A stretch of 56,985 nucleotides of DNA from NCBI GenBank assembly GCA_035622675.1, contig DASPUW010000433.1, positions 1 to 56,985 on the forward strand, read 5' to 3'. Of this stretch, positions 11,634 to 50,977 are shown one piece after another. The translations under genes were made by a program, and so were the position numbers. Each line of letters starts with the position of its first letter. Position 1 is the first letter of the stretch. Source of the DNA: Burkholderiales bacterium. GTDB taxonomy: Bacteria > Pseudomonadota > Gammaproteobacteria > Burkholderiales > SHXO01. Below the pieces are notes generated by a model that saw only the letters and a program-made list of their open reading frames with translations, ran no database searches and had not been told where the DNA came from.

Positions 11634-11927
11634 CTATACCCGCTCAGCTTCCCAGCGTCCGTAGCGCAATTGAGCGACGTCCAAGCTCACGGACGGGTCG
11701 CTGGCGGCTTTCATCAGCGTGCCGCGCTCGAAGCGATAACTGTCGAGGCGCCATTGCTTGAGCAGATTCATGGCCAGCGAGAAGTCGGAATAATTGAGCT
11801 GATACAGGCGGTTCAACTCGTAGGGCTCGCCGCTGTCGAGCGCTTTCATCAGATCGGACAATGCGCGCGAGCTTGCGTCGTCGGGCTTCGAGCGGACTTT
11901 TTTGATGGTCTCCTGCAGCGCGTCCAT
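11634..11927 (-). CDS. hypothetical protein (97 aa)
   Basis: The only ORF of normal amino-acid composition in a 740-bp gap. No recognisable motif. Confidence 0.4.
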   Translation of the reverse strand: MDALQETIKKVRSKPDDASSRALSDLMKALDSGEPYELNRLYQLNYSDFSLAMNLLKQWRLDSYRFERGTLMKAASDPSVSLDVAQLRYGRWEAERV

Positions 11928-12085: not shown

Positions 12086-12976
12086 TCACTTGACATTCTG
12101 CAGCTTCGACAACTCGGACTGATTCACGCTCGGCTGCGTGCGGCTAATCAGAGCTTCGATGTAGCTGCGTTCGATATCCTGCGCACGGCGCGTGCGCAGC
12201 TGATTAGCGATGCCGTCGTGGACCTCGGCCAGCGAGCGCGTCGACGTCGCCTTCCTGTCTAGCAGCTTCACGACATGCCACCCATTGCTGGTGCGGAACG
12301 GGCCTGCAACCTCGCCCTTGTCCAGCTTCTCGACTACGCTGCGCGTCTCTGGCAGCATCTGCGCCGCTGTCACCCACCCGATATCGCCTCCCTTTGGAGC
12401 GCTGTCTGCTTGCTCCGAGTTCTCCTTGGCCAGTTTCGCAAAGTCTGCGCCGTTCGCCTTCGCCTTTGCGGCCAGCTCCATCGCTTTCCTCTGCGCCGCA
12501 GCCGCGGTTGCCTTATCTGCGTCCTCAGGCGAGGCGATGAAGATCTGGGCAAGGTTGAACTGCGCCGGCACAACGAAAGTCGACCTGTTGGCCTCGTATG
12601 CCTTGCGTATGTCATCCTCTGCCGGATATTCCGTGGGTGGCCGCGCCAGATTGCTTACGTACATTTGCAGCAACGCCTGATCCCTCGCGCGCTCCATCAT
12701 CAGCGCGACATCGGGCTTCCTGTCCCAACCTTTGGACCTCGCTTCCGTCAGCAACGACTGACGCACAAGCTCGCTGCGCACCAGGCGATCCAGCTCGCTG
12801 GCACCGGTCAGCTGCTTGCGCAAATCCGGCGGCTGCGCATCGATGATCCGCCTTATGTCGGACGCTTTGATCTCGACGTTACCCATCTTGCCCACGACCG
12901 GATCCTCCGCGGCCGCCTGCTGGGCGCAGACGCTGCTGCTAATCCACACCAATGACAACCATGCCCATCCAATCAT
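12086..12976 (-). CDS. periplasmic parvulin-type peptidyl-prolyl isomerase (SurA/PpiD-like)
   Basis: Rotamase motifs (FNLAQIFI...GADFAKLAKENSEQ...GGDIGWV...GEVAGPFRTSNGWHVVKLLD). The start is set at MIGWAWLSLVWISSSVCAQQ (signal peptide). Confidence 0.8.
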   Translation of the reverse strand: MIGWAWLSLVWISSSVCAQQAAAEDPVVGKMGNVEIKASDIRRIIDAQPPDLRKQLTGASELDRLVRSELVRQSLLTEARSKGWDRKPDVALMMERARDQALLQMYVSNLARPPTEYPAEDDIRKAYEANRSTFVVPAQFNLAQIFIASPEDADKATAAAAQRKAMELAAKAKANGADFAKLAKENSEQADSAPKGGDIGWVTAAQMLPETRSVVEKLDKGEVAGPFRTSNGWHVVKLLDRKATSTRSLAEVHDGIANQLRTRRAQDIERSYIEALISRTQPSVNQSELSKLQNVK

Positions 12977-13058
12977 TCGCACGTTCACGGGATACCCCCC
13001 ACGCCTGGAACAGGACCGCTCGCTCCGGATTGCGCGCCTTCCGCCACGCGACTCCTGG

Positions 13059-13997
13059 TCACTTCGATTCCGGCGCGCGTTCCGTTGACTTCGGCTGGCT
13101 CGTCGCTTCCGCGGGTGACGGGGCCGCATTGCCAGCGCGCTTCTCGAACTCCCCCACGTATTCCACCTTGGCCGATGTGCGCAGGCGGCTCAACGTCTCG
13201 CTCGACAGGTCTAGCCGCTTACGATGCTCCAGAATCTGCTCGATGTACGGCGTCGCCTGCTCCTCGGTCAGCGGAGCGCGCTGCGAGCGGTCGAGCTGAG
13301 TGACCACCACGGCGTTGCCTCGCGGAACAACCAGAAGGTCACCGTCCTTCATCTGATGGATCTTGCCGATCAGCTCCGACGGCAGCTGCTCTGCAGCCTG
13401 CACGCTGAGGTTGGTCTGGAACTTGAGGTCGTGAGACTTCAACCAGAGCGCGAGCTGAGGCAGCGTTTTCGTCTTGTCCCGTTGCTCCTCGAGGCGGGCC
13501 ACCTCCGCACGAAGCTGCGGCTGAATGTCCGGCGGTGCAGCGATAGCGATCTCCTTGAGGCGATACAGGCGTCGGTCCTCGAACAGCTCCGGGTGTTCCA
13601 GATAGAATGCCTTGACCTGCTGCGCGGTGCTCCTGGGCGCGCCCTGCACCATCTGCTCCAGATAAGCCTGCGCGAATATCTGCCGCTTGGCAGCGTCGAC
13701 TAGCGCCATCACGTGCGGATCGCGATCGAGTTTCTTCTGCACCGCCTGCTGCACTAGGAGTTGCTGATCGATCAGGCGCTCCAGCATCTGCTTTTGCGCT
13801 TGCTTCTGCTGTGCATCCGGGATGTTTCCGGCACGCGACAAGGCCTGCTCGATTTGCTGCACAGTGATTTCGTCGCCGTTGACTTTGGCCGCGACCGGGC
13901 TGGCTGTCTTGGGGTCACTGCCAGGTGTACACCCCGACAAAAGAATCAGCGCCACTGCAATCGCCGCGGCGGCCTCGACTATGCGGGCAGGGATCAC
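13059..13997 (-). CDS. EpsD-like SurA-N/PPIase-family lipoprotein (PEP-CTERM-locus-associated family, from memory)
   Basis: 312 aa with a lipobox (LILLSGCTPG). VNGDEITVQQIEQAL...ERLIDQQLLVQQA resembles the chaperone domain of the EpsD family of PPIases. Confidence 0.65.
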   Translation of the reverse strand: MIPARIVEAAAAIAVALILLSGCTPGSDPKTASPVAAKVNGDEITVQQIEQALSRAGNIPDAQQKQAQKQMLERLIDQQLLVQQAVQKKLDRDPHVMALVDAAKRQIFAQAYLEQMVQGAPRSTAQQVKAFYLEHPELFEDRRLYRLKEIAIAAPPDIQPQLRAEVARLEEQRDKTKTLPQLALWLKSHDLKFQTNLSVQAAEQLPSELIGKIHQMKDGDLLVVPRGNAVVVTQLDRSQRAPLTEEQATPYIEQILEHRKRLDLSSETLSRLRTSAKVEYVGEFEKRAGNAAPSPAEATSQPKSTERAPESK

Positions 13998-14081
13998 AGG
14001 ATACTCCGTGTAAAATTTTGGTTCGGCGCGTGAGCGGCTGCGCCGATCCTGCTTGGAAGGAGAGGCGGAGGCCGATGCTTA

Positions 14082-14125
14082 GGCACGCCTCCGAGTTAGA
14101 GCGGGCACGCCTCCGAGTCAGAGCG
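14082..14125. repeat. tandem 22-bp direct repeat (2 copies, 1 mismatch) between the epsA-like and epsD-like genes
   Basis: GGCACGCCTCCGAGTTAGAGCG / GGCACGCCTCCGAGTCAGAGCG, read directly. Register confirmed against ORF 13925..14152. Confidence 0.85.
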
Positions 14126-14225
14126 CGATGCTACCACAGCATTCGACTGTAGGAGAACCGCGGAGCCGGGCGCGTTTTCTCCCGATCAACGCGCAGCGAG
14201 ACCGACTGGAGCTTCGCTCGCGGGG

Positions 14226-15098
14226 CTACGCCGGCGGGCGCCCGCTGAGGGCGTCGCTGCGGGTCAGATTCAGAGCGATTCCCCTCGCGACTGCCTGAGC
14301 GCGGTTTTGAACGTCGAGCTTGCGGAGAATCTTCTGGACGTGATTCTTTACCGTGAGGCGACTTATGCTGAGGATCTCGGCAATCTCGTGGTTGCTCTTG
14401 CCGCGCTCTACCCACTCGAGAACTTGGGCCTCGCGTGTGGTGAGGATTTCACGCGTTTCGATCCGATGTACGCTAGCTGATGCAGTCCGCTCGCAGTTGT
14501 TGGCACACAGCCATGCTGAATGCAGGTACGGTACGGTCAGTTCCAGCATGCGAGCGTCACGCGCGCAGACGGGAGCGGGCAGCTTGAAAAAAGCGAAGAA
14601 CGCGGCTGGATGCTCGCCCAATCCTGCCAATCCGTGAACCATCGCGTTGGTGAGATCCATGCGTCGCAATGTCGCCACCATCGGTTCCATCGCTGCGTCA
14701 AGACTCGACGTCACGCCTACTGCCAGCGGGACGCATCCGCCTCGCCTCCACACCGCCACCAGATGATGCAGGATTCCGTTCCGGCCGCACAACTCGGTGA
14801 AATGTTCCTCCGCGATGGGATAGCTCCCTAGCCAGTCGAAGCACAAACCTCGGGCGCCAGGATCAGGCATCGCACACACCAGACCTTCGTGCGCGACGAT
14901 ACCCTGGAACACGCCCTGGAGCCAGGAAAAGAAGCAAGCGCGGCTCTTGACCTTGACTGCTGCCTCGATATTCACGAGCAGGACATCGAGCTCGGTACGG
15001 CTCTGAATCACGGCTGCGTCTGCGTCATGGCGAAGTGGTCTCTCGTGCGGAGATGCCAAGCTTGAACCCCCTCCGCGAGCGACTCCGGCGCGAGTCAC
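14226..15098 (-). CDS. LuxR-family regulator, EpsA-like (XrtA/PEP-CTERM-system-associated type, from memory)
   Basis: C-terminal LuxR HTH (TTREAQVLEWVERGKSNHEIAEILSISRLTVKNHVQKILRKLDV). The N-terminal domain (ACFFSWLQGVFQGIVAHEGLVCA) resembles EpsA-type regulators. Confidence 0.75.
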   Translation of the reverse strand: MTRAGVARGGGSSLASPHERPLRHDADAAVIQSRTELDVLLVNIEAAVKVKSRACFFSWLQGVFQGIVAHEGLVCAMPDPGARGLCFDWLGSYPIAEEHFTELCGRNGILHHLVAVWRRGGCVPLAVGVTSSLDAAMEPMVATLRRMDLTNAMVHGLAGLGEHPAAFFAFFKLPAPVCARDARMLELTVPYLHSAWLCANNCERTASASVHRIETREILTTREAQVLEWVERGKSNHEIAEILSISRLTVKNHVQKILRKLDVQNRAQAVARGIALNLTRSDALSGRPPA

Positions 15099-15159
15099 AT
15101 ACTCTACATGATGGACGCCGAAGATGACGGTCTAGTTGCGGCTGCGTTAAAAAGCGCAG

Positions 15160-15567
15160 CTACCAATCCGCAAACAGCTTGCCGTCCAGGCCCGCACCGT
15201 CGGCGCCGCTCTTGACGTCGTACACTGACCCTTTCGCTTCGCTGTCGGGCGGAGGAAGGACCTTCCAAGTGGTCGTGCTGTCGGTGATCGGGTCCACGGG
15301 AACGTTGCGGATGTAGCGCAGCGTGGCGAGCTCCTCCAACGAATCTGGATAGCGACCTTTGTCGCCGTGAAACTTGTCGATCGCGTCGCGCATGACCGCC
15401 AGGTCCTGTTTCAGCGTCGCTTCTTTGGTGTGTTGGATGTGCGTGAAATACCGCGGGACAGCAATCGTCAGAAGCAAGGCCAGAATGGCGAGGACAATGA
15501 TCAGCTCGACCAGCGTGAAAGCGCGGAATGCAATGCGCAGCGGCCCCTTCACCACTCCCCTCACCAC
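15160..15567 (-). CDS. GspG-like pseudopilin (prepilin-type N-terminal domain)
   Basis: RAFTLVELIIVLAILALLLTIAVPRY. Has Ala instead of Gly at the -1 cleavage position, and Glu at +5 is present. Confidence 0.8.
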   Translation of the reverse strand: MVRGVVKGPLRIAFRAFTLVELIIVLAILALLLTIAVPRYFTHIQHTKEATLKQDLAVMRDAIDKFHGDKGRYPDSLEELATLRYIRNVPVDPITDSTTTWKVLPPPDSEAKGSVYDVKSGADGAGLDGKLFADW

Positions 15568-16061
15568 TGCCTATAGGGCACCCCGTTGATCCCCTTTGCG
15601 CTCGACAGCGAATACACGTCGAACACATCCTTGCCCGGGCTCGGGTCGTCGGGCGGACTGTCGTAGCTACGCATGCCCCACGTCTTTTCAGCGGGAGTGT
15701 CTCCATCGCTAAAGAAGGGATCGCGCGGGACGCGGCGCAGGAAATAGATCTTGCGTTTCGCTGGATCTTTCTCGTTGCTGACGCCGCCGACCAGCGCATC
15801 GAGCGACGGCGGGTATCCGCTCTCATCTGCCTTCTTCGCAACACGGCCTTCGTCGACCGCCTGCTTATATGCGTCAATCGCGGTGCGAATATCGCGCAGC
15901 GCAGCACGCAAGTCCTGCTCTTTCGCGCGTTGACTGGCCAATTCACCAAGCGGGATCAAGCCCGTCACGAGGATCGCGACAATCGCAACGACAATCAGCA
16001 GCTCGATGAGGGTGAACCCGCGTCGACTGTTCGATGTGTGGCCGGCTAAGCCGATGGTCAT
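15561..16061 (-). CDS. GspG-like pseudopilin (prepilin-type N-terminal domain)
   Basis: RRGFTLIELLIVVAIVAILV, the canonical G/FTLIE cleavage-methylation motif. Overlaps the secretin stop by 4 nt. Confidence 0.8.
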   Translation of the reverse strand: MTIGLAGHTSNSRRGFTLIELLIVVAIVAILVTGLIPLGELASQRAKEQDLRAALRDIRTAIDAYKQAVDEGRVAKKADESGYPPSLDALVGGVSNEKDPAKRKIYFLRRVPRDPFFSDGDTPAEKTWGMRSYDSPPDDPSPGKDVFDVYSLSSAKGINGVPYRQW

Positions 16062-18286
16062 GGTGTGACGGTGATGTCCACCGGCGCAGGCGGCTGCATC
16101 GGCACGTTGCCGCCGCCAGCATCGATTCCCACTACGTTTTCTGCTCGCACTTGAACTGTCCCGGGCGCGGCTACAACTTTGAACCGCACGGACGCGGCCC
16201 CCTCGACCTTCACCGGCACACGCCCTGGCGCGGACGGGGCGACGCCGAGCGGCTGGAGTTGGCTCGGATCAAAGGCCAGCTCGACGCGTGCACCTACCGC
16301 GCTGGTTCCCGGTGGCACTCCGAGCGACACGAGCAGCTCGGTCCCGGTCTTGGCCGCAAGCGGCACGGCGATCAGCAGTCCCGGCACGGGCTCGGCCGGT
16401 GCTTCTGGACCGGGACCTGGTGCGGCGGGGGTCGGGGCAGCCGCCTGCCGCGCGGCGCCGCCGCCCTGCGCGGGGGCCAGCGCGAGCGCGCCGGAGGATG
16501 TCTGTGCGATCCGCAGCGGCACGCTGCCGATCGACGAGTCGGTGCCGACCGGCGTATCGACGATCGCGCTCTGCGGCCAGTTGATGCTGCGCACGATGCG
16601 CGGCGTGATCAAGAGAATGATCTCGGTCTTTTCGCGATCGTCCGTTTGGTTGCGGAACAAGCGCCCGATGATCGGAATATCGCCCAGGCCCGGCACCTTC
16701 TGCGCGCTCACGCGGTCGTCGTCCTGAATGAGGCCTGCCAGAATCTGAGTTTCCCCGTCTTTGATCTGTAAAGTGGTCGCGGCATTGCGCGTCCCCAGCT
16801 GGTACGCAACCGTGCCGTTGATGTTCAGTGTCTGGGTGATGTTGCTTACTTCCAGCCCGACCTTGATCGCGACCTCGTCGCGCAGATAGATGTTCGGTTC
16901 CACGTCGAGCTTGAGCCCCGTATCCAGATAGCTCACCGAGGACGAGACGCCCACGTTTGCGGTAGACGTAGTCGTGATGACGGGCACCTTCTGCCCGATG
17001 TGGACTTTGGCCTTTTCCCGATTCTTCACCCGCACCTTGGGGTTGGCGAGCAACCTGTTGTCGGCGTCCTGTGCCAACAGGTTAACCACGATCGCCGGGT
17101 TGGCGGTAAACCACACCAGTCCGTTGGTCGTGTTCAACGGAATATTGGCCGGCGGCGTCGGTGTCGGTGTACCGGTGCCCGGCTGGCTGCCGGTCGACAG
17201 CGCCGGATTGCCGTAGCTGATGCTCGTCGGCCATTGCAGCCCGAGGGTCTGCATGCGCGTACGCGACACCTCGAGCACCGACAGCTCGAGCATGACTTCG
17301 GGCTCGGCCAAATCCAGAGAACGCACCAGACGTTCCACCACGCTCACTGCTTCCGGCGTGTCTTTGACGACCATCAGATTGAGCTTCTCATCGATGAATA
17401 CGTCCTGAGTCTTGACCATGCCCTTGACGAGGTTGACCGCCTGCTTCACGTCGGCGTTCGCCAGGTAGAAGCTGCGCACCACAAGCTCGCGGTACTCTTT
17501 CTGCTTCGCCGGAGTATTGGGGTAGACCAGGACCGAGTTCTCGTTGAGCAGCCTGCGATCCAGCTGATTGGTGAGCAGGATCAGCTTGACCACATCGTCG
17601 AGCGAGCTGTTGCGCACGACCATGTTCACTTTGGTATCCGAGCGTACGTCGCGGTCGAACACGAAATTGATCCCGGAGGTACGGGAGATCACTTCGAACA
17701 CCGTCTTCAACGTCGCGTCGCGAAATTCCAGGGTAATGGGTTTGGTGAAGGCCGACTTGAGAGCGGGCGGTGCCGAGGCCGCGGCCGCCGCGCGCTTTTC
17801 GTAGATGCGGCTCAACTGGGTCCGCGCGTCGATAAGACTCGGATCCTGCTCGATCACTCGTTTAAGGGTCTGCTCGGCCTGATCGAGTGCGCCGGCGTCG
17901 ATGTCCTTTTGTGCCAGCTTGATCGCTTCCAGGTTCTTGCGCCGCTGCGCGATCTCGCCCAGTCCGACCTGGGCCGCCTTGTTGGCGGGGTCGTAGCGCA
18001 AGGCCTTACGGTAGTCCGTCTCAGCCCTGTCAAGGTCGCCGGAACCGCGGTACAGATCACCCTGCGACACCCAGCGGGCAACCGCCTGCCCTTTGTCCTC
18101 CTCGTAGGTCTGGCGATACTCGAAGTTGTTGGGCGCCGCCTTGACCGCTTCTTCCAGCTTCGCCAGCGCACCCTCGCTATCGCCGGCCGCCATCTTCTCC
18201 CGCCCGTCCGTATACGCGCGCCAGCCGGCGCAAGCGCTCAGCAGGCAACACGCAATCAGCAGACTGGATGTGGCTCGCGTCATCAC
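16058..18286 (-). CDS. secretin (GspD/PilQ family) lipoprotein with an N-terminal TPR region and a C-terminal extension
   Basis: 742 aa. Features in order: lipobox (LLSACAG); TPR-like helices; an N0/N1-like region (ITLEFRDATLKTVFEVISRTSGINFVFD); the secretin core ending in GLGDIPIIGRLFRNQTDDREKTEIILLITPRIV; then 176 further residues. Confidence 0.9.
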   Translation of the reverse strand: MMTRATSSLLIACCLLSACAGWRAYTDGREKMAAGDSEGALAKLEEAVKAAPNNFEYRQTYEEDKGQAVARWVSQGDLYRGSGDLDRAETDYRKALRYDPANKAAQVGLGEIAQRRKNLEAIKLAQKDIDAGALDQAEQTLKRVIEQDPSLIDARTQLSRIYEKRAAAAASAPPALKSAFTKPITLEFRDATLKTVFEVISRTSGINFVFDRDVRSDTKVNMVVRNSSLDDVVKLILLTNQLDRRLLNENSVLVYPNTPAKQKEYRELVVRSFYLANADVKQAVNLVKGMVKTQDVFIDEKLNLMVVKDTPEAVSVVERLVRSLDLAEPEVMLELSVLEVSRTRMQTLGLQWPTSISYGNPALSTGSQPGTGTPTPTPPANIPLNTTNGLVWFTANPAIVVNLLAQDADNRLLANPKVRVKNREKAKVHIGQKVPVITTTSTANVGVSSSVSYLDTGLKLDVEPNIYLRDEVAIKVGLEVSNITQTLNINGTVAYQLGTRNAATTLQIKDGETQILAGLIQDDDRVSAQKVPGLGDIPIIGRLFRNQTDDREKTEIILLITPRIVRSINWPQSAIVDTPVGTDSSIGSVPLRIAQTSSGALALAPAQGGGAARQAAAPTPAAPGPGPEAPAEPVPGLLIAVPLAAKTGTELLVSLGVPPGTSAVGARVELAFDPSQLQPLGVAPSAPGRVPVKVEGAASVRFKVVAAPGTVQVRAENVVGIDAGGGNVPMQPPAPVDITVTP

Positions 18287-18834
18287 TCGCTGCCGGTCGG
18301 CAAGGTCTGTCGTTGACTAAGCGGCAGATAGGTGATCACCAGCGCGCGCTCGCCCACTTCCTCGAGCTTGTACGTGTTGTCGATCGTTTCCCCGGGCTTG
18401 ACAACGAGATTCCGCTCGCCCTGGGCGAGGAACACCGTCGTGTCGTGATCCTCCACCAGCCGCCCCACATAGGCAAATGGCAACGGCGGCGCCTGCGGGG
18501 GAGGCGGTGGCGGTGCTGCCGCCGCGACGGCCGACGCCGCCGTTCCCTTCGGTGCCTTCGGCGGCGCGGGCCGGAAGCTCCGCGGCCCGAACGCCTCGCT
18601 GTCGGGATCGGTCGATGGTCTGCGGCGCAGCTTGCCAAGATCCAGCGCCGGCGCCTGCTCGGGCGCGGTGCGCGGCTTGGAATCGGCTGCTGGCCGCGGG
18701 GTGGAGTCGGCGACTGCACCGGCGCTCGCTTCGGTCATATCGGTGAGCTCATCAGCCCAGCGCACTGCGGTCAACGTGAGGGCTACTCCGCCGATCAGCA
18801 GCCCCGCACGCACCTTGGGATTCACTCTCATCAC
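18283..18834 (-). CDS. PilP/GspC-HR-like inner-membrane assembly protein
   Basis: 183 aa. Has an N-terminal TM helix, a Pro/Ala-rich linker and a C-terminal beta-rich domain (YVGRLVEDHDTTVFLAQGERNLVVKPGETIDNTYKLEEV). Both ends overlap neighbouring genes by 4 nt. Confidence 0.55.
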   Translation of the reverse strand: MMRVNPKVRAGLLIGGVALTLTAVRWADELTDMTEASAGAVADSTPRPAADSKPRTAPEQAPALDLGKLRRRPSTDPDSEAFGPRSFRPAPPKAPKGTAASAVAAAAPPPPPPQAPPLPFAYVGRLVEDHDTTVFLAQGERNLVVKPGETIDNTYKLEEVGERALVITYLPLSQRQTLPTGSE

Positions 18835-19391
18835 TCCTCCCCCAAGAACAGACTGAATCGCACCCTGGCGTCCAGGTCAGGCTGATCGGCCGACTCGCGC
18901 TTCAGCGCGAGCTCGTCGAGCGCAGCCGATGGCACCACCTGCAGTACTTCGTTCACGAAACCTCGCACGCTGGTGTAATCACCGCTCACCGGCAGCGTAA
19001 TCTCGTAGCGGGCCAAGTGGAAGTCGGCTTCCCGACTGAGCTTGTACTCCCCCTTCTTGAGGAGCAGGCGATTGTGCTGCGCCGCGCGGTGAACACGTCC
19101 CAGCAGCTCTGGCACGTTCTCGATCAGCGGGAAGAAGGCGTAGAAGTTCGACAGCTGACCGCGCCCGCTCGGGGCAACGCTCAAGGAACCGCGCTGCCCC
19201 AAACGCGACACCAGGTTCGCCACCTCCGCGTCCAGCGCCTGCACGCGCTGGCGTCCGGAGTGGATCACGATTCCGACGGCACCCGCCGCAAACAACAACA
19301 GGGCGAGGCCGCTGAGTCCTGGCCAACGCAGCCGGATCAGCGCGCGCTTGATGGTCCATTCCGCCCGGTGTGCAAAGGATGGCCTGCTCAC
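18831..19391 (-). CDS. PilO/GspM-like bitopic membrane protein
   Basis: 186 aa with a single TM helix (LSGLALLLFAAGAVGIVIH). Assigned by position and size within the operon; no sequence motif was recognised. Confidence 0.5.
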   Translation of the reverse strand: MSRPSFAHRAEWTIKRALIRLRWPGLSGLALLLFAAGAVGIVIHSGRQRVQALDAEVANLVSRLGQRGSLSVAPSGRGQLSNFYAFFPLIENVPELLGRVHRAAQHNRLLLKKGEYKLSREADFHLARYEITLPVSGDYTSVRGFVNEVLQVVPSAALDELALKRESADQPDLDARVRFSLFLGEE

Positions 19392-19930
19392 TGTTCCTCC
19401 TGCCAGGCCGCGGAAAGCGTGAAGGCAACGGGCTGGCCCGGGTCCTTGCTCTTCACCTCATGACTCTGGAGCACGACTCCGTGCAGCCGCTTGCTGCGCT
19501 CCAAGCGCTCCATGTAAGCAAAAATCGCTGACAGGGTGCGAGCGTCGCCGCCGATCAGCACGCTGCGGTTGCGCGCATCGGGCTGAACGGCGAGCAACGC
19601 CACGTCAGCGGTCTCCGCCGATTCGATTGCGGCGAACAGCTCACCCCACGGGACGTTCATCAGCTGCAGCACCGCGTTCGCTTTCTTGATCTGCTCCCGC
19701 AGTTCCGGAGTGTCGGCCCCCCGCGCGGTAATGGCCGGGAGCGATCGGCTCGCGATAGCGTGCAGCGTGGCGAGTCGATCCTCGCGGGCTGCCGTCTCGC
19801 GCTTCAGATGGCCCTGATACGAGATCGCTGCCACCGCGGCAAGTGTGCCGGCGATCAGCAGCCACGGGCCGACACGCGAGCCGCGGCCGGTGGGTCGAAG
19901 GAAGTCGAGCTCTATCGTGCGCACGCTCAC
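19388..19930 (-). CDS. PilN/GspL-periplasmic-like bitopic membrane protein
   Basis: 180 aa with a short cytoplasmic N-terminus, then a TM helix (WLLIAGTLAAVAAISY). Assigned by position and topology. Confidence 0.5.
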   Translation of the reverse strand: MSVRTIELDFLRPTGRGSRVGPWLLIAGTLAAVAAISYQGHLKRETAAREDRLATLHAIASRSLPAITARGADTPELREQIKKANAVLQLMNVPWGELFAAIESAETADVALLAVQPDARNRSVLIGGDARTLSAIFAYMERLERSKRLHGVVLQSHEVKSKDPGQPVAFTLSAAWQEEQ

Positions 19931-19957
19931 GCTTTCCCCGGCCTCAAATCACGGCTC

Positions 19958-20800
19958 TCACCCTCCGACTGGCTCCACACGAGCATCGGCCTGAGAATTT
20001 CTCCGCTTGAATCCGTTTCCGAGGCGGATCAGCTGCCAGCCCGGTATCGCAGCGGGAGGCGGTGAAGCATCCGAGCACAGATACAGTACGCCACCACCGC
20101 TCGCGTCGCCCACCGCCGCCTCCTGTTTCAGAAGGACCGGCAACGCTTGTCCGAGAGGACCGTCGATGCGGCGGCTGCGCACGGCTTGCCAGGCTCCGTT
20201 CGCATGAAAAGCCAGGCTCGCCCGTCCCGGCTCCGCCGCGGCAAAGCAGAACTGCCGCGCCTTCAGGGCCGAGCGATGGCGGTTGATCCGGTCGACCAAA
20301 TTTGGAACCAGCGATGCGAGCTGGCCACCCGCGCGCGTGACTGCGTCCCGCACCGACGAAACCAGCGCGCGGTCCACGGCAGCCGCGAAGGAGGCCTGGC
20401 CCGCCGGCTGCTCGTCCAGGCAGAAGTCCCAGGAGTCGGCCGCAATTCCATACAGCTCCTTGAACGCCAGCCGCGCGAAGCTGAGGCGCTCGCTGTCGCT
20501 CACAAGTCCGCGGCTCCAGGGGATCAGCAGGTAGCGCACGAAGTGATCCGACAGCACGACCTCCACCCGCCCGAGGCGCACGCGCCGCTCACGCAGTGTC
20601 TCGACCAGAACATCGGAGGCCGCTCGCCAGAGCTCCGGCGCTTCGCTGCCGTCCGTCGCACCTGCCTCGACCGCGATCGTGCGCTGCGTCTCGGAGCGCG
20701 CGCGCAGCGTGGCTCCGCGCCGCGCCACACTCACCGAGGCGGGCCTCAGCTCCACGCGCCAATCCTTCCCCGGCAGCAAACTACCCAACCAGCGTGACAC
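19958..20800 (-). CDS. PilM/GspL-cytoplasmic-domain-like protein (no TM segment)
   Basis: 280 aa, soluble, located directly after the ATPase gene with a 20-nt overlap. Assigned by gene order only. Confidence 0.45.
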   Translation of the reverse strand: MSRWLGSLLPGKDWRVELRPASVSVARRGATLRARSETQRTIAVEAGATDGSEAPELWRAASDVLVETLRERRVRLGRVEVVLSDHFVRYLLIPWSRGLVSDSERLSFARLAFKELYGIAADSWDFCLDEQPAGQASFAAAVDRALVSSVRDAVTRAGGQLASLVPNLVDRINRHRSALKARQFCFAAAEPGRASLAFHANGAWQAVRSRRIDGPLGQALPVLLKQEAAVGDASGGGVLYLCSDASPPPAAIPGWQLIRLGNGFKRRNSQADARVEPVGG

Positions 20801-22472
20801 GGTTTATCTCCTGTAGCGTGCTCTCGCCGCTGCGCACAATCTCGAGCGCGGCTTCGCGCAGGAACCGCGTCTGCTGTCTGCGCGCCGCCTCCTTTACCCG
20901 GCGAATGGGCTCTCGCGCAGTGATCAGCTCGCGAATCTCGTCGTTGAGCACCATGATCTCCGAGATCGCCCTGCGCCCGCGGAAGCCACTACCGCGGCAG
21001 TGTCCGCAACCGCTCCCGGCGCGCAGCCTCCAATCACGCACCTGCTCCAGGGTGAGACCCGACTCGGCCAGCAACTGCGTATCGGGCGCCGCGTCTCTGA
21101 CGCAGTGGCTGCAGTTCACCCGCACGAGGCGCTGCGCGGCGATGCCATTGAGGGCCGAGACGAAGCTGTATGGGTCAACACCCATGTGCATAAAGCGGCC
21201 GATCACGTCGAACACATTGTTCGCGTGGACCGTGGTGAAAACGAGGTGCCCGGTGAGCGCGGCTTGGACTGCAATCTGCGCAGTTTCGGGGTCGCGAATC
21301 TCACCCACCATGATCTTGTCCGGATCGTGCCGCAAGATCGAGCGGAGGCCGCGGGCAAACGTGAGGCCCTTTTTCTCATTTACCGGGATCTGCAGCACTC
21401 CGGGCAGCTGATATTCAACCGGATCCTCGATCGTGATCAGCTTGTCCGCACCGTGGTTGATCTCCGAAATCGCGGCATACAGCGTGGTCGTCTTGCCGCT
21501 GCCGGTCGGCCCCGTCACGAGTAGCATGCCGTAAGGCTCGCTCGACAAGCGCCGCAGGGTGGCAGCCGCCTGGGCATCGAACCCGAGTGCGTCGAGCGTC
21601 AGCCCCTTGACGTGGTCGGCCAGGCTTTGCTTGTCCAGGATACGCAACACGGCGTCTTCACCGAAGATGCTCGGCATCACCGATACGCGAAAATCGATCT
21701 CGCGCCCCTGAGCCACGACCTTAAAGCGCCCGTCCTGCGGGATGCGCCGCTCGGCGATGTCCAACTCGGCCATCACCTTGACGCGCGATATGACTTGCTC
21801 GGCCATGTCCAGGCCTTGCGCCGTGCCGATCGGGCTCAACACGCCGTCCATCCTGTACTTGATGACCAGGTGCGTGGCAGTGGTTTCCAGATGAATATCG
21901 CTCGCGCCGGCTTTCAGCGCGTCGTAAAGCGTCGAGTGCACCAGCCGTACGACCGGACTGCCCGCTTCGCTGATGGTCTTCAGCGACAGCTCCTCCACGC
22001 GACCTCGGGCGCCGTCCTCTTGCACCGACTCGCTCAGGAGCGAGTCCATGGCTCGCAGGCTCTCGCCATAGCGGGCTAGATACGCCGCGACATCGGTGGT
22101 GTGGGCCAGGCACCAGTGCAACGCGCCAGGAATGCGCTCCTCCGCCCACGGGCGCAGGGCCGGGTCGAACGGATCGCCAAAGGCCAGCAAGAGCTGCGCC
22201 TCCGCGTCGCGCGCGAGCACGCAGCCATGCGCCAAGGCCTCCGTATAAGGCAGCAGATCGAACGCCGGCTCGAGGCCATCCAGCTCGCGCATCGACACTG
22301 CCGTGTAGCCGAGCGTGGCACCCAGCGCGGCCACGAACTTGTCAGGCAGCAGCTCGGATTGCTCCTCCAGTATGTCCACGATGCGCTTGCCGCTCGCGCG
22401 AGCGCTAGCCCTCGCCTTCGCGACGTCATCGGGAAGAATCAGCGGCGCCGATTCCAGCTCGCGCGGGTTCAA
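20781..22472 (-). CDS. gspE: type II secretion/type IV pilus assembly ATPase (GspE/PilB family)
   Basis: Walker A (VTGPTGSGKTTTLYA), GspE N-domain-like residues, and a C-terminal tetracysteine motif (CSHC...CGHC). The start is placed at a TTG forming a TTGA overlap with the gspF stop. The 196-aa Arg/Gly-rich extension in the ORF track is rejected. Confidence 0.9.
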   Translation of the reverse strand: MNPRELESAPLILPDDVAKARASARASGKRIVDILEEQSELLPDKFVAALGATLGYTAVSMRELDGLEPAFDLLPYTEALAHGCVLARDAEAQLLLAFGDPFDPALRPWAEERIPGALHWCLAHTTDVAAYLARYGESLRAMDSLLSESVQEDGARGRVEELSLKTISEAGSPVVRLVHSTLYDALKAGASDIHLETTATHLVIKYRMDGVLSPIGTAQGLDMAEQVISRVKVMAELDIAERRIPQDGRFKVVAQGREIDFRVSVMPSIFGEDAVLRILDKQSLADHVKGLTLDALGFDAQAAATLRRLSSEPYGMLLVTGPTGSGKTTTLYAAISEINHGADKLITIEDPVEYQLPGVLQIPVNEKKGLTFARGLRSILRHDPDKIMVGEIRDPETAQIAVQAALTGHLVFTTVHANNVFDVIGRFMHMGVDPYSFVSALNGIAAQRLVRVNCSHCVRDAAPDTQLLAESGLTLEQVRDWRLRAGSGCGHCRGSGFRGRRAISEIMVLNDEIRELITAREPIRRVKEAARRQQTRFLREAALEIVRSGESTLQEINRVTLVG

Positions 22473-23662
22473 TGCATGCTCCCAGCCAGCTCGAAGATGG
22501 GGAAATACATGAGGACTACGATCCCCCCGATCACGACGCCGATGACGGCCATGAGGACCGGCTCGAACACGCGGGTGAACCGCTCCACCCAGCGCGCCAG
22601 CTCCTCCTCGTGGAACGTGGCGATGCGCTCCATCATCTCGCCCATTTGACCGGTCCGTTCCCCCACCCGCAGCATGCGCAGCGCTACCGGCGTCGTAAGG
22701 CCTTGGGAGTCGAGCGACTGCGAGATCGGCTGACCCTCCCGGATGCTGCGGGCGGCCTGCGCAAGGCGCTGTTGCAGCTCTTGGTCGAGAAGTCCGGACA
22801 CCATCGCCAGCGCCTGGGTCACCGGAGTCCCGCCCCCCAGCAGCATGCCGACGGTGCGGTACAGGCGCGTCAGTTGGTATACGCGCGCACGTGCGCCGAC
22901 CGCCGGAATGCGAGCGAACAGGCGGCTTAGCCAGCGCCGGGCGGATGGCTGCCGAAGCCATACCACAAGTCCTACGATAACCGCGCACACTAGGCCGAGC
23001 AGGAGCAAGCCGCGGCGCTCCACGAATCCGCCCCAGGCCATGAGCAGCCGTGTGAGCCATGGCAGATTTCCACCGATGTCCTCGTATATGCGAGAGAACC
23101 GTGGTACCACGTAGCCGAGCAGGAACATGCAGACCAAGCCGCCCACGATGATGAGGATGGCCGGGTAAATCGAAGCGCTGACCAGGTGCTTTTTGACACC
23201 GTCGAGCTGCGTCTGATACGCCACATAGCGCGCCAGCGCCTCGGGCAGGTCGCCGGTGCGCTCGCTCGCTCGCACCGTCGCCACAAACAGATCCGGAAAG
23301 GTCTGCGGGAAACCCTGTAGGGCGGACGAGAAGGATTGACCCTGCTTAAGTCGCTGCGCCAGGCCAACCAGGACACCCGAGGTCGCGGGGCGCGACTCCT
23401 TCTCGGCCAGCGTCTCGATCGCTTCCAGCAGACTGATACCAGAGCGCAACAGCGCGAGCAGCTCTTGGGTGAACAGGACAAGTGGGAATCGCGCCGTTCC
23501 CAGCCCTTGCGGCAAAGCGACCGCACTCGCTGGACGCACCCCGACAACCAGGTAGCCCTGCGCTTGCGCCTGCTCGTTGGCGTCACGCAGGTCACGCGCA
23601 TCAAGGAGCAGGGAAACGACATCTCCCGCCCCGGGCTTGACCGCTTTAACCTGGTAACGCAT
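22469..23662 (-). CDS. gspF: type II secretion system platform protein (GspF/PilC family)
   Basis: 397 aa with duplicated T2SSF-type domains and three predicted TM regions. Ends ...MYFPIFELAGSM. Confidence 0.9.
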   Translation of the reverse strand: MRYQVKAVKPGAGDVVSLLLDARDLRDANEQAQAQGYLVVGVRPASAVALPQGLGTARFPLVLFTQELLALLRSGISLLEAIETLAEKESRPATSGVLVGLAQRLKQGQSFSSALQGFPQTFPDLFVATVRASERTGDLPEALARYVAYQTQLDGVKKHLVSASIYPAILIIVGGLVCMFLLGYVVPRFSRIYEDIGGNLPWLTRLLMAWGGFVERRGLLLLGLVCAVIVGLVVWLRQPSARRWLSRLFARIPAVGARARVYQLTRLYRTVGMLLGGGTPVTQALAMVSGLLDQELQQRLAQAARSIREGQPISQSLDSQGLTTPVALRMLRVGERTGQMGEMMERIATFHEEELARWVERFTRVFEPVLMAVIGVVIGGIVVLMYFPIFELAGSMH

Positions 23663-23670
23663 CGGAAAAC

Positions 23671-24090
23671 CTAGTAGTTGGTGATGTCCGCATCCTCACC
23701 CGTGCCGCCCGGCTGGCCGTCCTTTCCCAGTGAAACCAGGTCGTACTCGCCATGCTCGCCGGGCTGCCGGTAGATGTAGGGGTGATCCCACGGGTCCAAA
23801 GGCACGGCCTTGCGCAAATACGGTCCGTTCCACTTTGGCTCGTTGTTGGGTCTGGTGAACAGCGCGCCTAAACCCTGCTCGCTCGTCGGATAGTGCCCGG
23901 TATCGAGACGGTACTGATCGAGCGCCTTGTCAAATGAGTCGATCTGCGCGCGTGTGACCTGAATCTTCGATTTGCCCTCCTGCGCAAAGTAGCGCGGGGC
24001 GACGTAACCGACCAGCAGTCCGATGATGACGATCACTACCAACAGCTCGAGCAGCGTGAAACCGAGATGAGAAGGGCGAGCCACTCGCAT
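23671..24090 (-). CDS. gspG: major pseudopilin GspG
   Basis: GFTLLELLVVIVIIGLLVGYVAPRY plus the GspG C-terminal signature (DPWDHPYIYRQPGEHGEYDLVSLGKDGQPGG). The start is set at MRVARPSHLGF. Confidence 0.9.
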   Translation of the reverse strand: MRVARPSHLGFTLLELLVVIVIIGLLVGYVAPRYFAQEGKSKIQVTRAQIDSFDKALDQYRLDTGHYPTSEQGLGALFTRPNNEPKWNGPYLRKAVPLDPWDHPYIYRQPGEHGEYDLVSLGKDGQPGGTGEDADITNY

Positions 24091-24369
24091 CAACCGTAGA
24101 GATTCGAGAACCCTTAAGAAAGGCTTTTTGTGTCGCGCCCAGCCCGGCGACCCAGGCCCCTCACCCTGGCCCAGGCCAAGGGCCAAAGCCACAGATCGTA
24201 ACGCATGCCTCTGACAATTCGGTTAAGGCCGTTTGGGTTATGTAACACCCCCCTCTCACGGGCGTCAAGGTGCAAAGGCGCGAAGTCGCCCAACCACAAC
24301 AAATGAAGCGTAAGTAAGCGACAGACATTGCAAAATATCCCATGCGCCCGGGGTCGGAAATGCGCCGCT

Positions 24370-41819: not shown

Positions 41820-44800
41820 TCAACGCTGCGGCGCCTGCGCCACGCGTGCATCTATCTTCGGATCTGCACAGACATCGGCCCCATCGCGAGGCAAGCTGGC
41901 CTGCGTGAGCTTTTGCACGGGCACGACGAAGATCGATGTCATCAGACGGCCTACGGTGTCCATCACATCAGAGCCAGCGACGCCGATCTTGAAGTCGGTG
42001 ATGGTGCCGCTCACGCCCACAGGCGTGGCCAGACTGAAGAACTGCGGCGTCTTCGCTCGCGGAGCCAGACGGAACGCGAGCACCTCGGTCCCGAAGTCCA
42101 CCCTGCCCTCGCCGTTTACCCGCATGCGGCTGGTGTCGAGCAGGATCTCGTCCTGGCTCAGCTTGCCGTCGCGGATGTGGAAGCGGCCCACCGCGCAATT
42201 GACCTTCGATTCCGATGAAGGATCGACGTTCGGAATCAGCGCGACGAACAGGTTGACCGCCCACAGGTCGAAGATGCCCGCCCTCAGGTTTTGCGGCCAG
42301 ACGGCGAAATCGATCCGCCCGTTTGCGTGCTGCATGAGCGCGTCGAGGGTGGGCGCGCGGGCGTCGAGATTCACGCGCAGGCTGAACCGTCCCTGGAGAT
42401 CGGTGCGGGGATTGATGCGCCGCGCCAGGATGCCGTAGTCGAATCGATCCACCCACATGTCCGCCGTCACCGCAACATCCTTCTCCGTGGGCAGGAAAGA
42501 AAACGCGATGCGCGCGGACCCGCCGGGGATATTCACTTCCGCCGGATCGAGCATGAACTTTCCGTCCGCGAGCTGGGCCTTCAGGCTGCCGCTGCCGAGC
42601 TTGTCCGGCCCCGACAGCACCTCCTCCACGGCGACGCTCAGATAGGCATCGAGGGCTCGCATCACCTCGGGGCTCAGCAGCTTCTGGCCCTGTGCCGCGG
42701 CCTCTTTGGCTTTGGCGCGCATCTCCTCTGCCGTCAGCGGCTTGCTCGGCTTCTTCTCCTTTTCGACCATCGACCAGCTGCCGAGCTTGAAATCATCCAG
42801 CTGGACGCGTGGCGCTTTGAGGTCGATCTCCAGGCGTGGGCGCTCGCCGGTCGTGGCGAGGCTGCCGCGGCCATTCAACCGGCTGTCCCCGACTCGCAGG
42901 CTGAGGTCGGGAACTTCGTAGCCGCTGCCCGCGGCCTCGAACTTCCCGCCGAGCTCCCACGGCCCCCAGGGCGGCAGCTGCACGTGCGCAAGCTGATTCA
43001 GGCTGTCGAAACGCTCTCCGTGCGCAGACAGCTCGAGGTGCATCTCGCGCTGCGTGATGGGCAACGCGACCTTGCCCGTCAACTGAAGCTGCGTGCCGGC
43101 GGCCTCCGCCGTCATCGAAAATGGCACGCTGCTGCTCGTCTTCAGAAAATCGGGCAAAGCCCCGCTCGCGATGCGGATGGTGACCGCCGTAGTATCGATC
43201 GCGCCGTCGAGATCGAGCGTGATCGGCTTGCCGGGGGCGGCCCGCGCCAGGCCCTTTGCGACTTTGATCGGCAGCTGAAGCGTGCGGTTGGGGTCGCGCA
43301 GGGTGAGCTGGCCGGATTCGACCTCCGCCAGCAGCGACGAGCGCTCGAGCATCTCGCCGAGACGGCTGCCGCGGCCGACGAGCTCGGCACGCACGAGCTG
43401 CGCGCGCGACTCGAGCTCGCTCACGACTTTCATCCTCTGCAGCAGAGCGCCGATGTCCACGTTCTCGGCCGCGACCCAGAGCGAAGCTTCGGGCACTTCG
43501 CCCCGCAGATCGAGCGCCGCCGCCCCGGAGAATGTCGCGCCCGCCACGGTTGCGCTGAAAGGAGAGGGCCACATGTGGCCGTCGCGGATGCGGCCGGAGA
43601 ACGACACGTCGCTCAGCGGCACGGGCCGCATCGTTACGCGTTTGAGCTGCACGTCGATGTCGGCGTCGAACAGGCTGATGCCGTGGGGGAGGATGGGCAG
43701 GTCGATGGACGGCGTGGCAGGAGCTTTGGGATCCGAAGGCGGCAGCATGTGCTCCAACTCATCGAGATCGAGGTTGTCGACCGTGAGGCGCGCCTCGAGT
43801 ACAGGCTGCCGGCTGAGGCCGACCAGCGCGAGCTCCGCGTTCATCGTTGTGTTGCCGAGGCGAACGCTGAAAGGGCTCAAGCGCCATTCGTCGCTGCCCA
43901 CGCGCACCTGGCCTTCGATGGCCACGCGGCCGGATGCATCGCGCGCGAGGCCGAGCCACCGCGCGACATCCCCGGCGCGCGCTGCCTCCAGCTCGAAGCG
44001 CAGGTCTGTGCCGCGCCCGGCCTCCGCGGCAGCCAACATGCCATCCAGCCGAAACGTCGCTCCGCTGGCGTTCACCTCGAGCTGCAGCGGCCAGCGCAGC
44101 TCATGCACGAGAGCTGCCAGATCGCCCCCTTTGAAGCTTCCGGAGAACGGCTCGCCGAGCAGCGATCCTCGCGCACGGCCGTTCAGCTTTCCGCCGGCGG
44201 GGATGGCAACATCGAAGGCGTCGAGCCTGAATTCCACCGGCTTGCCGCCTTCGACGTTCCCGTAGCTCAGCCGCGCTTGTGTCATACCCACCCGCACGTC
44301 GAGCGTGCGCACGATGGCGGCCAGGTTATCGCCGCGCCCCTTCAAACGCAGCCCGAAGCGCCCCAACTCGCCTTCCACGCCGCGCACGCCGGTGAACACC
44401 TGGGCCAATCGTCCGAGCTTCGAGCGCTCGGTTCCCAGCGACAGCACAAAATCGGGGACCTTTGCCGTGGTGTCCACCTCCACGTTACCCACCAACGGCA
44501 CGTCGGCCACACTGGTCTGCACTGGGGCTTTCAGCCGTCCCTCCAGCAGGACGAGGTGGAGCGCCGAGTCACGGACGTCGCCCGGCAGCCCCTTCCATTT
44601 CTCGATCTTCAGAGCGAGATCGATATCGAGCAGCCCGAGCTCTTTGAGGCTGTAGCTCTGCCTCTCCGCCTCGGCCAAGGTCTCCTTCGCCTCTGTAACG
44701 GAGCGCGCGGCGCTCTTCCGCGTCTCCTCGAGCTGGCCCGTGAGCGACTCGCTGGAGGGCGGTCCGCGTGCCTGCGGCTTCGCTGGTTGCGCCTCGCTGC

Positions 44801-50281: not shown

Positions 50282-50977
50282 CTACCGTGTTCGCCGGCGC
50301 GACAGGCCGAGAGCAGCGAATGCGAGTCCAGCCAGCGCGAGGCTTGCCGGTTCCGGGACCGCGGCCGGATCAAGTGCCACGGCGGCCGCCAAAATCGGAG
50401 GATCGTCGACGGTAAAGGTGAGGTTGTCCAACCCAAACACCCAATTGCCAGGGCGCGACAGCTGCAGGCTGGTCACGTCGTCGGCGTCGACCGAGAACAG
50501 GTAACTCAAGTCCGAGGCGTTGACTCGTTGAGTCCCTGCTGCCGCCTGGAAGACGAGATCATCTGCGGCAAAAGCTTGTACCGAAACCTTGTCTCCCGGC
50601 TGCCCGAACGGGACAAACACGAACGAGATGTCCCTGACGGGATTCGTGAACGAGATCGTAATCGTCTGCGCACGGGCGCCCTTGGAGTTCCAGTTCTCCA
50701 GGATCTGGCCCTGCACGAGGCTGCCGCAGCCACCGGCGCAATCGTCGCTGGTGGCTATGGGCGTCACCGTGGCGCTCCCCGAAATGGTCACATCGTCGGC
50801 CAGATACTGAACGTCGACCGCGCTGTTGTTCGGGAGCGGAGTGATGCCGTCCGCCAGCGTGTCGAAGGTGATCGTGATCGGGCCAGCGGCGGCGCTGAAG
50901 GCGAGCAGTGCGCCGGCGGCGCCGGCGAGGGCGCGGAGCGTGTTGTGCATTCTGTCGATGATCCTGTCGAAGGTCAC
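50282..50977 (-). CDS. PEP-CTERM sorting-domain protein
   Basis: N-terminal signal peptide. The C-terminus is VPEPASLALAGLAFAALGLSRRRTR (PEP motif, TM helix, Arg cluster). Confidence 0.85.
   Translation of the reverse strand: MTFDRIIDRMHNTLRALAGAAGALLAFSAAAGPITITFDTLADGITPLPNNSAVDVQYLADDVTISGSATVTPIATSDDCAGGCGSLVQGQILENWNSKGARAQTITISFTNPVRDISFVFVPFGQPGDKVSVQAFAADDLVFQAAAGTQRVNASDLSYLFSVDADDVTSLQLSRPGNWVFGLDNLTFTVDDPPILAAAVALDPAAVPEPASLALAGLAFAALGLSRRRTR

Follow-up and report, generated by a model that had tools for sequence, protein, structure and literature searches.

The DNA stretch analysed here (the window) is the whole 56,985-bp contig DASPUW010000433.1 from a metagenome-assembled genome (MAG) of a soil betaproteobacterium (Burkholderiales bacterium). 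A ten-gene pseudopilus/secretin operon occupies positions 15160-24090 of its minus strand, and three further genes, for a regulator of the EpsA family and two peptidyl-prolyl isomerases (PPIases), follow on the same strand, so that transcription of the region runs from 24090 to 12086. On balance, we favour the reading that the product of the operon is a separate kind of type IV filament machine, conserved in Betaproteobacteria and accompanied by an EpsA subfamily of its own, and that it is a recurrent but facultative module of the matrix loci of exosortase B (XrtB) and PEP-CTERM proteins. Families were assigned by scanning nearly all of the larger open reading frames (ORFs) of the window with the hidden Markov models of Pfam and NCBIfam. 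Folds were evaluated by comparing AlphaFold2 (AF2) models with solved structures in Foldseek. The features of the region are given below in the order of transcription.

23671..24090, minus strand: major pseudopilin of the GspG type, 139 aa; leader MRVARPSHLG, followed by FTLLELL
22469..23662, minus strand: inner-membrane platform protein of the GspF/PilC family, 397 aa; PF00482 T2SSF, 176.6 bits, two repeats
20781..22472, minus strand: assembly ATPase of the GspE/PilB family, 563 aa; PF00437, 418 bits
19958..20800, minus strand: actin-fold protein like PilM or cytoplasmic GspL, 280 aa; placed by AF2 and Foldseek, no Pfam match
19388..19930, minus strand: PilN-like bitopic protein, 180 aa; PF05137 PilN, 22.8 bits, just at the gathering score
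18831..19391, minus strand: PilO-like protein, 186 aa; PF04350 PilO, 20.9 bits, just under the cut-off of 22
18283..18834, minus strand: PilP/GspC-like protein, 183 aa; Pro-rich linker and C-terminal beta domain
16058..18286, minus strand: outer-membrane secretin, 742 aa; PF00263, 145.7 bits, with TPR families, PF07660 and PF03958
16058-16393, minus strand: cohesin-like C-terminal module of the secretin, residues 632-742, after a Pro/Ala-rich linker
15561..16061, minus strand: minor pseudopilin 1, 166 aa; PF07963 N_methyl, 36 bits; TIGR02532, 32.7 bits
15160..15567, minus strand: minor pseudopilin 2, 135 aa; TIGR02532, 25.2 bits (cut-off 16.3); PF07963, 24.1 bits
14226..15098, minus strand: LuxR regulator of the EpsA family, operon-linked subfamily; TIGR03020.2, 193.0 bits (cut-off 170)
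13059..13997, minus strand: lipoprotein PPIase of the EpsD family; TIGR02925, 215.7 bits (cut-off 108.9); lipobox LLSGC
12086..13129, minus strand: second PPIase of the parvulin type; PF00639 Rotamase, 87.2 bits

Architecture of the machine

The major pseudopilin scored 182.7 bits with the GspG model TIGR01710 (cut-off 88.85) and 145 bits with PF08334 (T2SSG). This pilin and the prepilin N-terminal domain were the only assignments in the operon above an NCBIfam cut-off. The platform protein reached 275.6 bits with the GspF model TIGR02120, below its cut-off of 424. The ATPase, whose TTG start codon overlaps the stop codon of gspF, carries the Walker A motif GPTGSGKT and two CxxC motifs. Its scores were 483 bits for PilB (TIGR02538, cut-off 676) and 478 bits for GspE (TIGR02533, cut-off 630), both below the cut-offs, and it was about equally near to the solved PilB and GspE structures. 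The sequence profile of the 280-aa protein had no match in the PDB, and the protein was resolved by structure prediction only: PilM (5eoy, E 3.5e-11) and the cytoplasmic domain of EpsL (1yf5, TMt 0.65) were the top Foldseek matches of its AF2 model (pLDDT 82.3, pTM 0.81). It is encoded by a gene of its own, with no membrane segment fused to it. For the 183-aa protein, a profile of 19 orthologues weakly matched the PilP structures 2ivw and 4av2_M (E 0.03-0.04), the GspC_delta model NF041515 gave 18 bits, and no family was above its cut-off.

No NCBIfam model for GspC, GspL, GspM or GspH-K reached its cut-off in the operon, where the matches to GspH, GspI and GspJ were sub-threshold. The sole PilT-family match in the operon was the assembly ATPase itself, at a sub-threshold 155.6 bits (cut-off 319), so no retraction ATPase was recognised there; a second ATPase gene of the GspE/PilB family was absent from the window. 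The operon proteins matched general models only, and none of the NCBIfam models that they matched was specific to a machine of this kind. Control of the ATPase by cyclic di-GMP (c-di-GMP) was considered and dropped after a pattern search, which found the N-terminus to be without the MshEN motif.

The secretin begins with a lipobox (LLSAC), which is followed by the TPR domain, the STN/N0 domain, one Secretin_N domain, the secretin domain, the Pro/Ala linker and the cohesin-like module. Its scores for GspD (184.7 bits, cut-off 351) and PilQ (170 bits, cut-off 284) were both below the cut-offs, and the E-values against solved GspD and PilQ structures were alike. The TPR domain was weakly similar to the pilotin PilW and to PrsT. 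The C-terminal module, of 110 residues, was kept in all 22 aligned relatives; its AF2 model (pLDDT 92.9) matched the nine-strand beta-sandwich of solved cohesins. Moreover, the top 22 Foldseek matches were all cohesins, with TMq values of 0.61-0.83 (0.77-0.83 for the best five), and its sequence profile matched the ScaB cohesin (E 0.007). The Pfam Cohesin family was not reported for the secretin. One literature search on secretins with cohesin and dockerin gave no earlier account of a secretin that bears a cohesin-like module.

Hence, the machine is a hybrid of a T2SS-type pseudopilin and a PilM-N-O-P-like arrangement as in type IV pili, T2SS denoting the type II secretion system (Gsp/Xcp/Eps). 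It is like the T2SS in its above-threshold GspG pseudopilin, its GspE- and GspF-family proteins, a secretin with N0 and one N-domain, the lack of a retraction ATPase and the secreted-protein genes adjacent to it. It differs from the T2SS in that PilM-, PilN-, PilO- and PilP-like genes are present whereas GspC, GspL, GspM and GspH-K are not recognisable, in that only two or three unclassified pseudopilins occur, and in that GspD, GspE and GspF fall below their equivalog cut-offs. The fused TPR lipoprotein domain, the cohesin-like C-terminus and the single N-domain of the secretin, as well as the gene order G-F-E-M-N-O-P-D, are further differences. With the type IVa pilus, the machine shares the PilM fold, an order of genes before the secretin in which the positions of PilN, PilO and PilP are taken by proteins that match these families at best marginally, the full-length similarity of the ATPase to PilB and a TPR lipoprotein element like the pilotins PilF/PilW/Tgl. 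In contrast to that pilus, its major subunit is GspG-like and not PilA-like, PilT and PilU are absent, the genes form one operon, the pilotin-like TPR domain is fused to the secretin, and the PilB and PilQ models stay below cut-off.

The earlier note, made from the letters of this DNA, had placed a LuxR regulator resembling EpsA, an EpsD-like lipoprotein PPIase and a second parvulin downstream of the operon on its strand. These descriptions were borne out by the strand and the scores listed above. The regulator had also been tied to XrtA, and here the note has to be corrected: NCBIfam now names TIGR03020 'XrtB/PEP-CTERM-associated'. Residues 38-272 of EpsA aligned to positions 7-244 of the 247 in TIGR03020, the GerE domain (PF00196) gave 70 bits, and the N-domain residues W59, Q61, G62, H70, W117, H155 and G156 were common to 21 relatives. 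The true start of EpsA is likely a GTG codon near 15011, giving about 260 aa instead of the 290-aa ORF, as at the locus of a 92% orthologue. EpsD covered positions 6-232 of 232 in TIGR02925 and contained SurA_N_3 and Rotamase_2 domains. The second parvulin scored 31.9 bits with the EpsD model, under its cut-off; its ORF is over-extended at the 5' end, and the start is near 12973, since its orthologue has 295 aa.

Conservation of the operon and its downstream neighbours

Homologues were surveyed by a secretin-alignment scan of one genome per species, which gave 80 loci (L numbers below), and the neighbourhood of 10 kb on either side of each locus was examined. About 80 genomes, each representing a species, were found to keep the operon, which was complete wherever the flank sufficed. 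The small genes were found in 65 (PilM-like), 65 (PilN-like), 67 (PilO-like) and 74 (PilP-like) loci, and the pseudopilin genes adjoined the secretin in all but two of the 80. All carriers were Betaproteobacteria-type MAGs or isolates, which included Nitrosospira, Nitrosovibrio, Rhodoferax, Rugosibacter and Sulfurirhabdus; L068 is a strain of Nitrosospira multiformis. Of the 66 orthologous operons from different species with at least 2.5 kb of flank past the last pseudopilin, 30 had an EpsA-family gene in the same orientation on their downstream side. The adjacency of operon and EpsA is therefore not due to chance, because the arrangement recurs in so many different species. In L018, L022 and L025, the EpsA gene separated pseudopilin 2 from the operon's third small gene. 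The operon-linked EpsA proteins scored 366 bits with TIGR03020 in N. multiformis Nl7 and 249, 228, 202 and 201 bits in other loci. In the secretin tree, the EpsA-linked operons filled several deep clades and the EpsA-less operons filled others. Periplasmic foldases (EpsD, parvulin and DsbC) also recurred at the downstream junction of the operon.

A PEP-CTERM gene stood just after EpsA in 24 loci, of which 23 belonged to one protein cluster (c90) and one, in L022, was unclustered. The C-termini of the c90 proteins read VPEPxTYAML... or PEAxTWAML... and gave 28-30 bits with PF07589. Usually, this gene was followed by genes for a secreted protein of about 500 aa, with a weak PBP_like_2 match, and for an outer-membrane protein of the POTRA_2/ShlB (TpsB-like) type. 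A three-gene module of clusters c90, c96 and c100 was observed after the operon-linked EpsA at L068:15483-19627 and in about 22 other loci; it is absent from the window. With respect to a partner for the cohesin-like module, no ORF in any locus had the tandem loops of a dockerin. One EF-hand/dockerin-like loop (D-x-N/D-x-D-G-x-I) was seen about 35 residues before the PEP motif in some c90 proteins, namely those of L068 (15483-16364), L048, L059, L065 and L080, from Nitrosospira, Nitrosovibrio and Rhodoferax; the other c90 proteins were without it. The loop is single, and hence it is not a true dockerin.

According to these results, the operon forms a stable core, and accessory genes vary on its downstream side. 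The data support a real association, maintained in evolution, that joins the machine, an EpsA subfamily of its own and the matrix genes of XrtB/PEP-CTERM systems.

Relation to exosortase B loci

The closest connection with XrtB was observed in L005, whose secretin is 68% identical. Its upstream side held a CoA-transferase gene and then a WcaJ-type priming transferase gene on the opposite strand. The operon came next, in the order G, F, E, M, N, O, P, secretin, pseudopilin 1 and pseudopilin 2, and was followed by EpsA, EpsL, EpsD, EpsF, EpsG and XrtB. The scores were 292 bits for EpsL (TIGR03014, cut-off 275), 562 for EpsF, 376 for EpsG and 379 for XrtB (TIGR03113, cut-off 275). EpsG of L005 (20296-21264), which is tyrosine-kinase-like, also showed a c-di-GMP-binding motif related to MshE (NF053729, 47.5 bits). 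Canonical XrtB loci (L099-L161) were collected by a reciprocal scan, in which the EpsA alignment was run against metagenome contigs. In these loci, the transferase was divergent and directly beside EpsA, and EpsL, sometimes EpsD, EpsF, EpsG and XrtB followed; the description of the Curvibacter exopolysaccharide (EPS) operon agrees with this layout (10.1101/2025.09.08.674843). No pseudopilus genes were found within 10 kb of the canonical loci sampled from metagenome contigs. Since the canonical transferase adjoins EpsA divergently, the operon of L005 sits inside an XrtB locus, between its divergent partners. A divergent transferase was also located upstream of gspG in L007, L013 and L070.

EpsA and EpsD, both of which the window has, are named components of the canonical XrtB loci of Methylobacillus sp. 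12S (eps) and Curvibacter (10.1101/2025.09.08.674843). The window differs from these loci in lacking EpsL, EpsE/F/G, XrtB, EpsI, the glycosyltransferases and WcaJ, and its EpsA comes from the other subfamily. Conversely, the canonical loci, both those sampled here and the published one, contain no pseudopilus or secretin genes (10.1101/2025.09.08.674843). The epsB and epsC genes of Methylobacillus were considered as possible pseudopilin genes and were dropped, as the canonical gene divergent from epsA encodes the priming sugar transferase.

The EpsA tree was divided into two halves, one from the EPS loci (canonical) and one from the operon-linked genes, and EpsA of the window fell in the operon-linked half. 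A two-by-two table of EpsA half against context, restricted to the metagenome loci, i.e., those not picked via the secretin, gave 10/3 versus 1/16 (Fisher p = 9e-5). The equivalog TIGR03020 thus lumps two context-specific EpsA subfamilies. Scores against the model were obtained for operon-linked EpsA proteins, and the highest-scoring of these, that of Nl7 (366 bits), covered its full length.

The earlier note had proposed that the operon is coupled to an exosortase system and had called for an examination of synteny in orthologous operons. EpsA and PEP-CTERM genes were frequent behind such operons, and in one case the whole of an XrtB locus followed. The proposal holds in that the coupling recurs (EpsA in 30 of 66 operons), and it fails in that the exosortase is XrtB and not XrtA and that the link is facultative, with 36 of the 66 operons lacking EpsA. 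The neighbourhood evidence ties the machine to XrtB facultatively, and about half of the operons are without the link.

Control elements were searched for upstream of the genes concerned. No sigma-54 -24/-12 box was found upstream of gspG, EpsA, c90 or c100 in any locus, and a single loose match occurred upstream of c96 in L073 only. Sigma-54 control as in XrtA systems was therefore rejected for every module gene, and control of the PrsK/PrsR type is unlikely. Scans for sigma-70 promoters and terminators at the ends of the operon gave nothing above the shuffled expectation. When a shared EpsA box was sought by k-mer counting upstream of gspG, EpsA and c90, only the clade-specific element GGGTGTTACATA before gspG emerged. 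In the window, it lies at about 24240-24255, 157 bp upstream of gspG. The element occurred 125-190 bp upstream of gspG in the clade of the window only (L004, L006, L007, L014-L016, L071 and L086), independently of the presence of EpsA, and it may be a promoter or operator.

In the lineage of the window, the EpsA-EpsD-parvulin trio was shared by the P0003 locus (the 92% orthologue) and the metagenome contig L087. The operon of an 83% relative (L086, with L088 representing the same locus) was followed by EpsA, WcaJ, a TPR-GT41 protein, a pilin-like gene, a PEP-CTERM gene and a homologue of the ~500-aa secreted protein (PBP_like_2); L088 also gave a 42% match to the c100 protein. Large proteins that combine TPR with Glyco_transf_41, similar to O-GlcNAc transferases, were noted beside PEP-CTERM genes on the downstream side of the operon at L013:17474-19834 and L086:16147-18564, which hints at glycosylation of Ser/Thr-rich cargo. 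The same chromosomal position, marked by the CoA-transferase upstream and by a 97-aa ORF and an M48 peptidase downstream, had other contents in further relatives: DsbC in L006 and L007, a sigma-54 two-component pair in L004 and nothing in L015. The locus of the window looks like a trimmed L005-type locus, in which the regulator and the foldase were retained and another parvulin was added. We propose that the polysaccharide and XrtB genes were lost or lie elsewhere in its genome.

Two further features of the window bear on this context.

11634..11927, minus strand: conserved 97-aa ORF, downstream boundary marker; no family match
50282..50977, minus strand: PEP-CTERM protein, 26 kb from the operon; PF07589, 26.4 bits (cut-off 20.7)

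The 97-aa ORF directly follows the operon in relatives without EpsA and EpsD. By tblastn, it was 50-54% identical in L014-L016, where it lay about 700 bases past pseudopilin 2, after the third small gene; a 44% homologue was situated farther from the operon in L017. The earlier note had found no exosortase or polysaccharide gene beside the operon. This was confirmed for the window as a whole, in which tblastn with these proteins and the Pfam and NCBIfam scans of nearly all of the larger ORFs found no exosortase, EpsL, EpsF, EpsG, priming glycosyltransferase or GT41. The PEP-CTERM protein that it had reported is genuine, with a C-terminus of VPEP, a hydrophobic helix and RRR (last residues VPEPASLALAGLAFAALGLSRRRTR). 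Its gene is outside cluster c90 and was rejected as evidence of cargo. It adds nothing to the link, because it is unrelated to the c90 family and because genomes with an exosortase have many genes of this kind (PMC1569441). The gene suggests an exosortase elsewhere in the genome, since PEP-CTERM genes co-occur with exosortases (PMC1569441).

The remaining genes of the window encode a TonB/ExbBD system, regulators, metabolic enzymes, GroEL and an AsmA-like protein. The last (41820-45932, minus strand) is a 1370-aa AsmA/YhdP-like protein, of a family linked to outer-membrane lipid transport, and is unrelated to the finding. The gene adjoining the PEP-CTERM gene (49350-50138, minus strand; 262 aa) combines an Mrr-type restriction endonuclease domain with a Top1-type zinc ribbon. 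A MazG-like gene stands beside it; a small island, either mobile or for defence, may be present here.

Function of the machine

The gene content suggests the following course of events. The GspE/PilB-family ATPase would act on the GspF platform to build a short GspG-type pseudopilus, which the PilM-, PilN-, PilO- and PilP-like proteins would align under the outer-membrane secretin; the TPR lipoprotein domain of the secretin would serve as its own pilotin-like part. EpsA would activate the operon and its neighbouring genes. The foldases EpsD and parvulin, with DsbC in some relatives, may prepare the cargo or parts of the machine, which would export matrix proteins jointly with the XrtB system. 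The weakest step is that the cargo would include PEP-CTERM proteins after exosortase processing. Extended to its full form, this course would make the machine the outer-membrane exit for XrtB-processed PEP-CTERM proteins or conjugates: XrtB releases them, the foldases keep them export-competent, the pseudopilus pushes them through the TPR-secretin, the cohesin-like module holds cargo or matrix at the surface and the operon-type EpsA is the switch. We consider this full form doubtful. The T2SS is the established exit route for proteins with two other C-terminal sorting tags, GlyGly-CTERM and MYXO-CTERM. Papers on these tags treat them along with type II secretion (PMC3237569, PMC11980579).

Several observations weigh against a partnership with XrtB loci. 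No EpsA was present within about 9 kb in 36 of the 66 orthologous operons, and whole clades were without it. L005 was the only locus in which direct adjacency to XrtB was observed, and 16 of the 17 loci with EpsA of the canonical subfamily and at least 3 kb of upstream sequence had no such operon nearby. No regulatory motif was found to be shared among gspG, EpsA and the PEP-CTERM gene. Furthermore, the window is without an exosortase, polysaccharide genes or a member of the operon-linked PEP-CTERM family. Some EpsA-less clades had a 3-hydroxybutyrate (3HB)-oligomer hydrolase downstream (PF10605, 698 bits), at a distance of about 0.5-4 kb from the last pseudopilin gene. It lay on the same strand in L031 (16218-18419), L034 and L039 and on the opposite strand in L033. 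This enzyme is a possible ordinary cargo; as an ordinary secreted enzyme, it points to a general secretion role.

These points lead to the most serious alternative, that the operon is the general T2SS of these bacteria and secretes ordinary exoenzymes, and that the adjacency of EpsA reflects biofilm co-regulation or drift without any relation to exosortases. The 3HB-oligomer hydrolase genes, the major pilin that passes the GspG equivalog model, the more than half of the orthologous operons without EpsA and the variable downstream side, which resembles a cargo hot spot, speak for such a system. In a phylogenetic profiling study from 2006, moreover, GspE of Nitrosomonas europaea, which is homologous, came only 34th; its best hits included PEP-CTERM-negative pseudomonads, and no claim was made that it belongs to the system (PMC1569441). 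However, GspC, GspL, GspM and GspH-K are not recognisable in the operon, and GspD, GspE and GspF are under their equivalog cut-offs. One EpsA subfamily is essentially confined to the operon, sometimes embedded among its pilin genes, and a PEP-CTERM gene immediately follows EpsA in about 23 loci. In L005, the two divergent promoter partners of an XrtB locus have the operon inserted between them. We therefore judge a general T2SS to be unlikely, though it deserves to be taken seriously.

The product of the operon may instead be a fibre on the cell surface, in which the GspG-like pilin forms an adhesive pilus or scaffolds the matrix, and EpsA would then co-regulate it with exopolysaccharide for aggregation. 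The PilM-, PilN-, PilO- and PilP-like alignment proteins, the full-length PilB-like ATPase, the resemblance of the TPR pilotin-like domain to PilW/PilF/Tgl and a secretin as near to PilQ as to GspD fit a fibre, as does the association with matrix loci. A precedent exists in cyanobacteria, where type IV pili, hormogonium polysaccharide and an exosortase are involved (PMC12188702). As in the Hps system with cyanoexosortase B of Nostoc punctiforme, pilin-like proteins, a type IV filament machine, polysaccharide and an exosortase would meet in one surface process (PMC12188702). The Hps system differs in belonging to another phylum, with another exosortase class and no common synteny, and the HpsB/HpsC matches of pseudopilin 1 reached 18 bits, far below the cut-off. 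Moreover, the major subunit is a short GspG-type protein (139 aa, PF08334) and not of the PilA type, the locus holds no retraction ATPase and no tip adhesin, and foldase and secreted-protein genes cluster downstream, as for cargo. A fibre is thus an improbable product of this operon. That the adjacency of the operon, EpsA and EpsD in the window is a chance rearrangement without functional meaning is hardly credible: the window does lack the rest of an XrtB locus, and its near relatives L004 and L015 have the operon in the same position without EpsA, but the arrangement was found in 30 loci, which are spread over deep clades of the secretin tree, and the operon-linked EpsA genes form their own subfamily.

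The balance of this evidence leaves us inclined towards a filament machine that is a facultative partner of XrtB/PEP-CTERM matrix loci. As judged by comparative genomics, what is new is the architecture of the type IV filament machine and its facultative partnership. No description of this linkage was found in the literature searched on exosortase B, on exosortases with pseudopilins or on PEP-CTERM proteins with type II secretion. [quoted passage not shown]

PEP-CTERM/exosortase systems are widespread in bacteria of soil, sediment and wastewater and are tied to flocs and the biofilm matrix. The genome of N. multiformis ATCC 25196 encodes 39 PEP-CTERM proteins and two EpsH genes (PMC1569441). 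For annotation, the operon is an undescribed variant, in which a GspG-type pilin, PilMNOP-like parts and a TPR-secretin-cohesin fusion are combined, and the curated EpsA family is seen to mix two context-specific subfamilies. A pseudopilus/secretin operon that is wired into XrtB loci via its own EpsA subfamily is a concrete candidate for the outer-membrane route, and it is genetically testable in cultured Nitrosospira, Nitrosovibrio and Rhodoferax.

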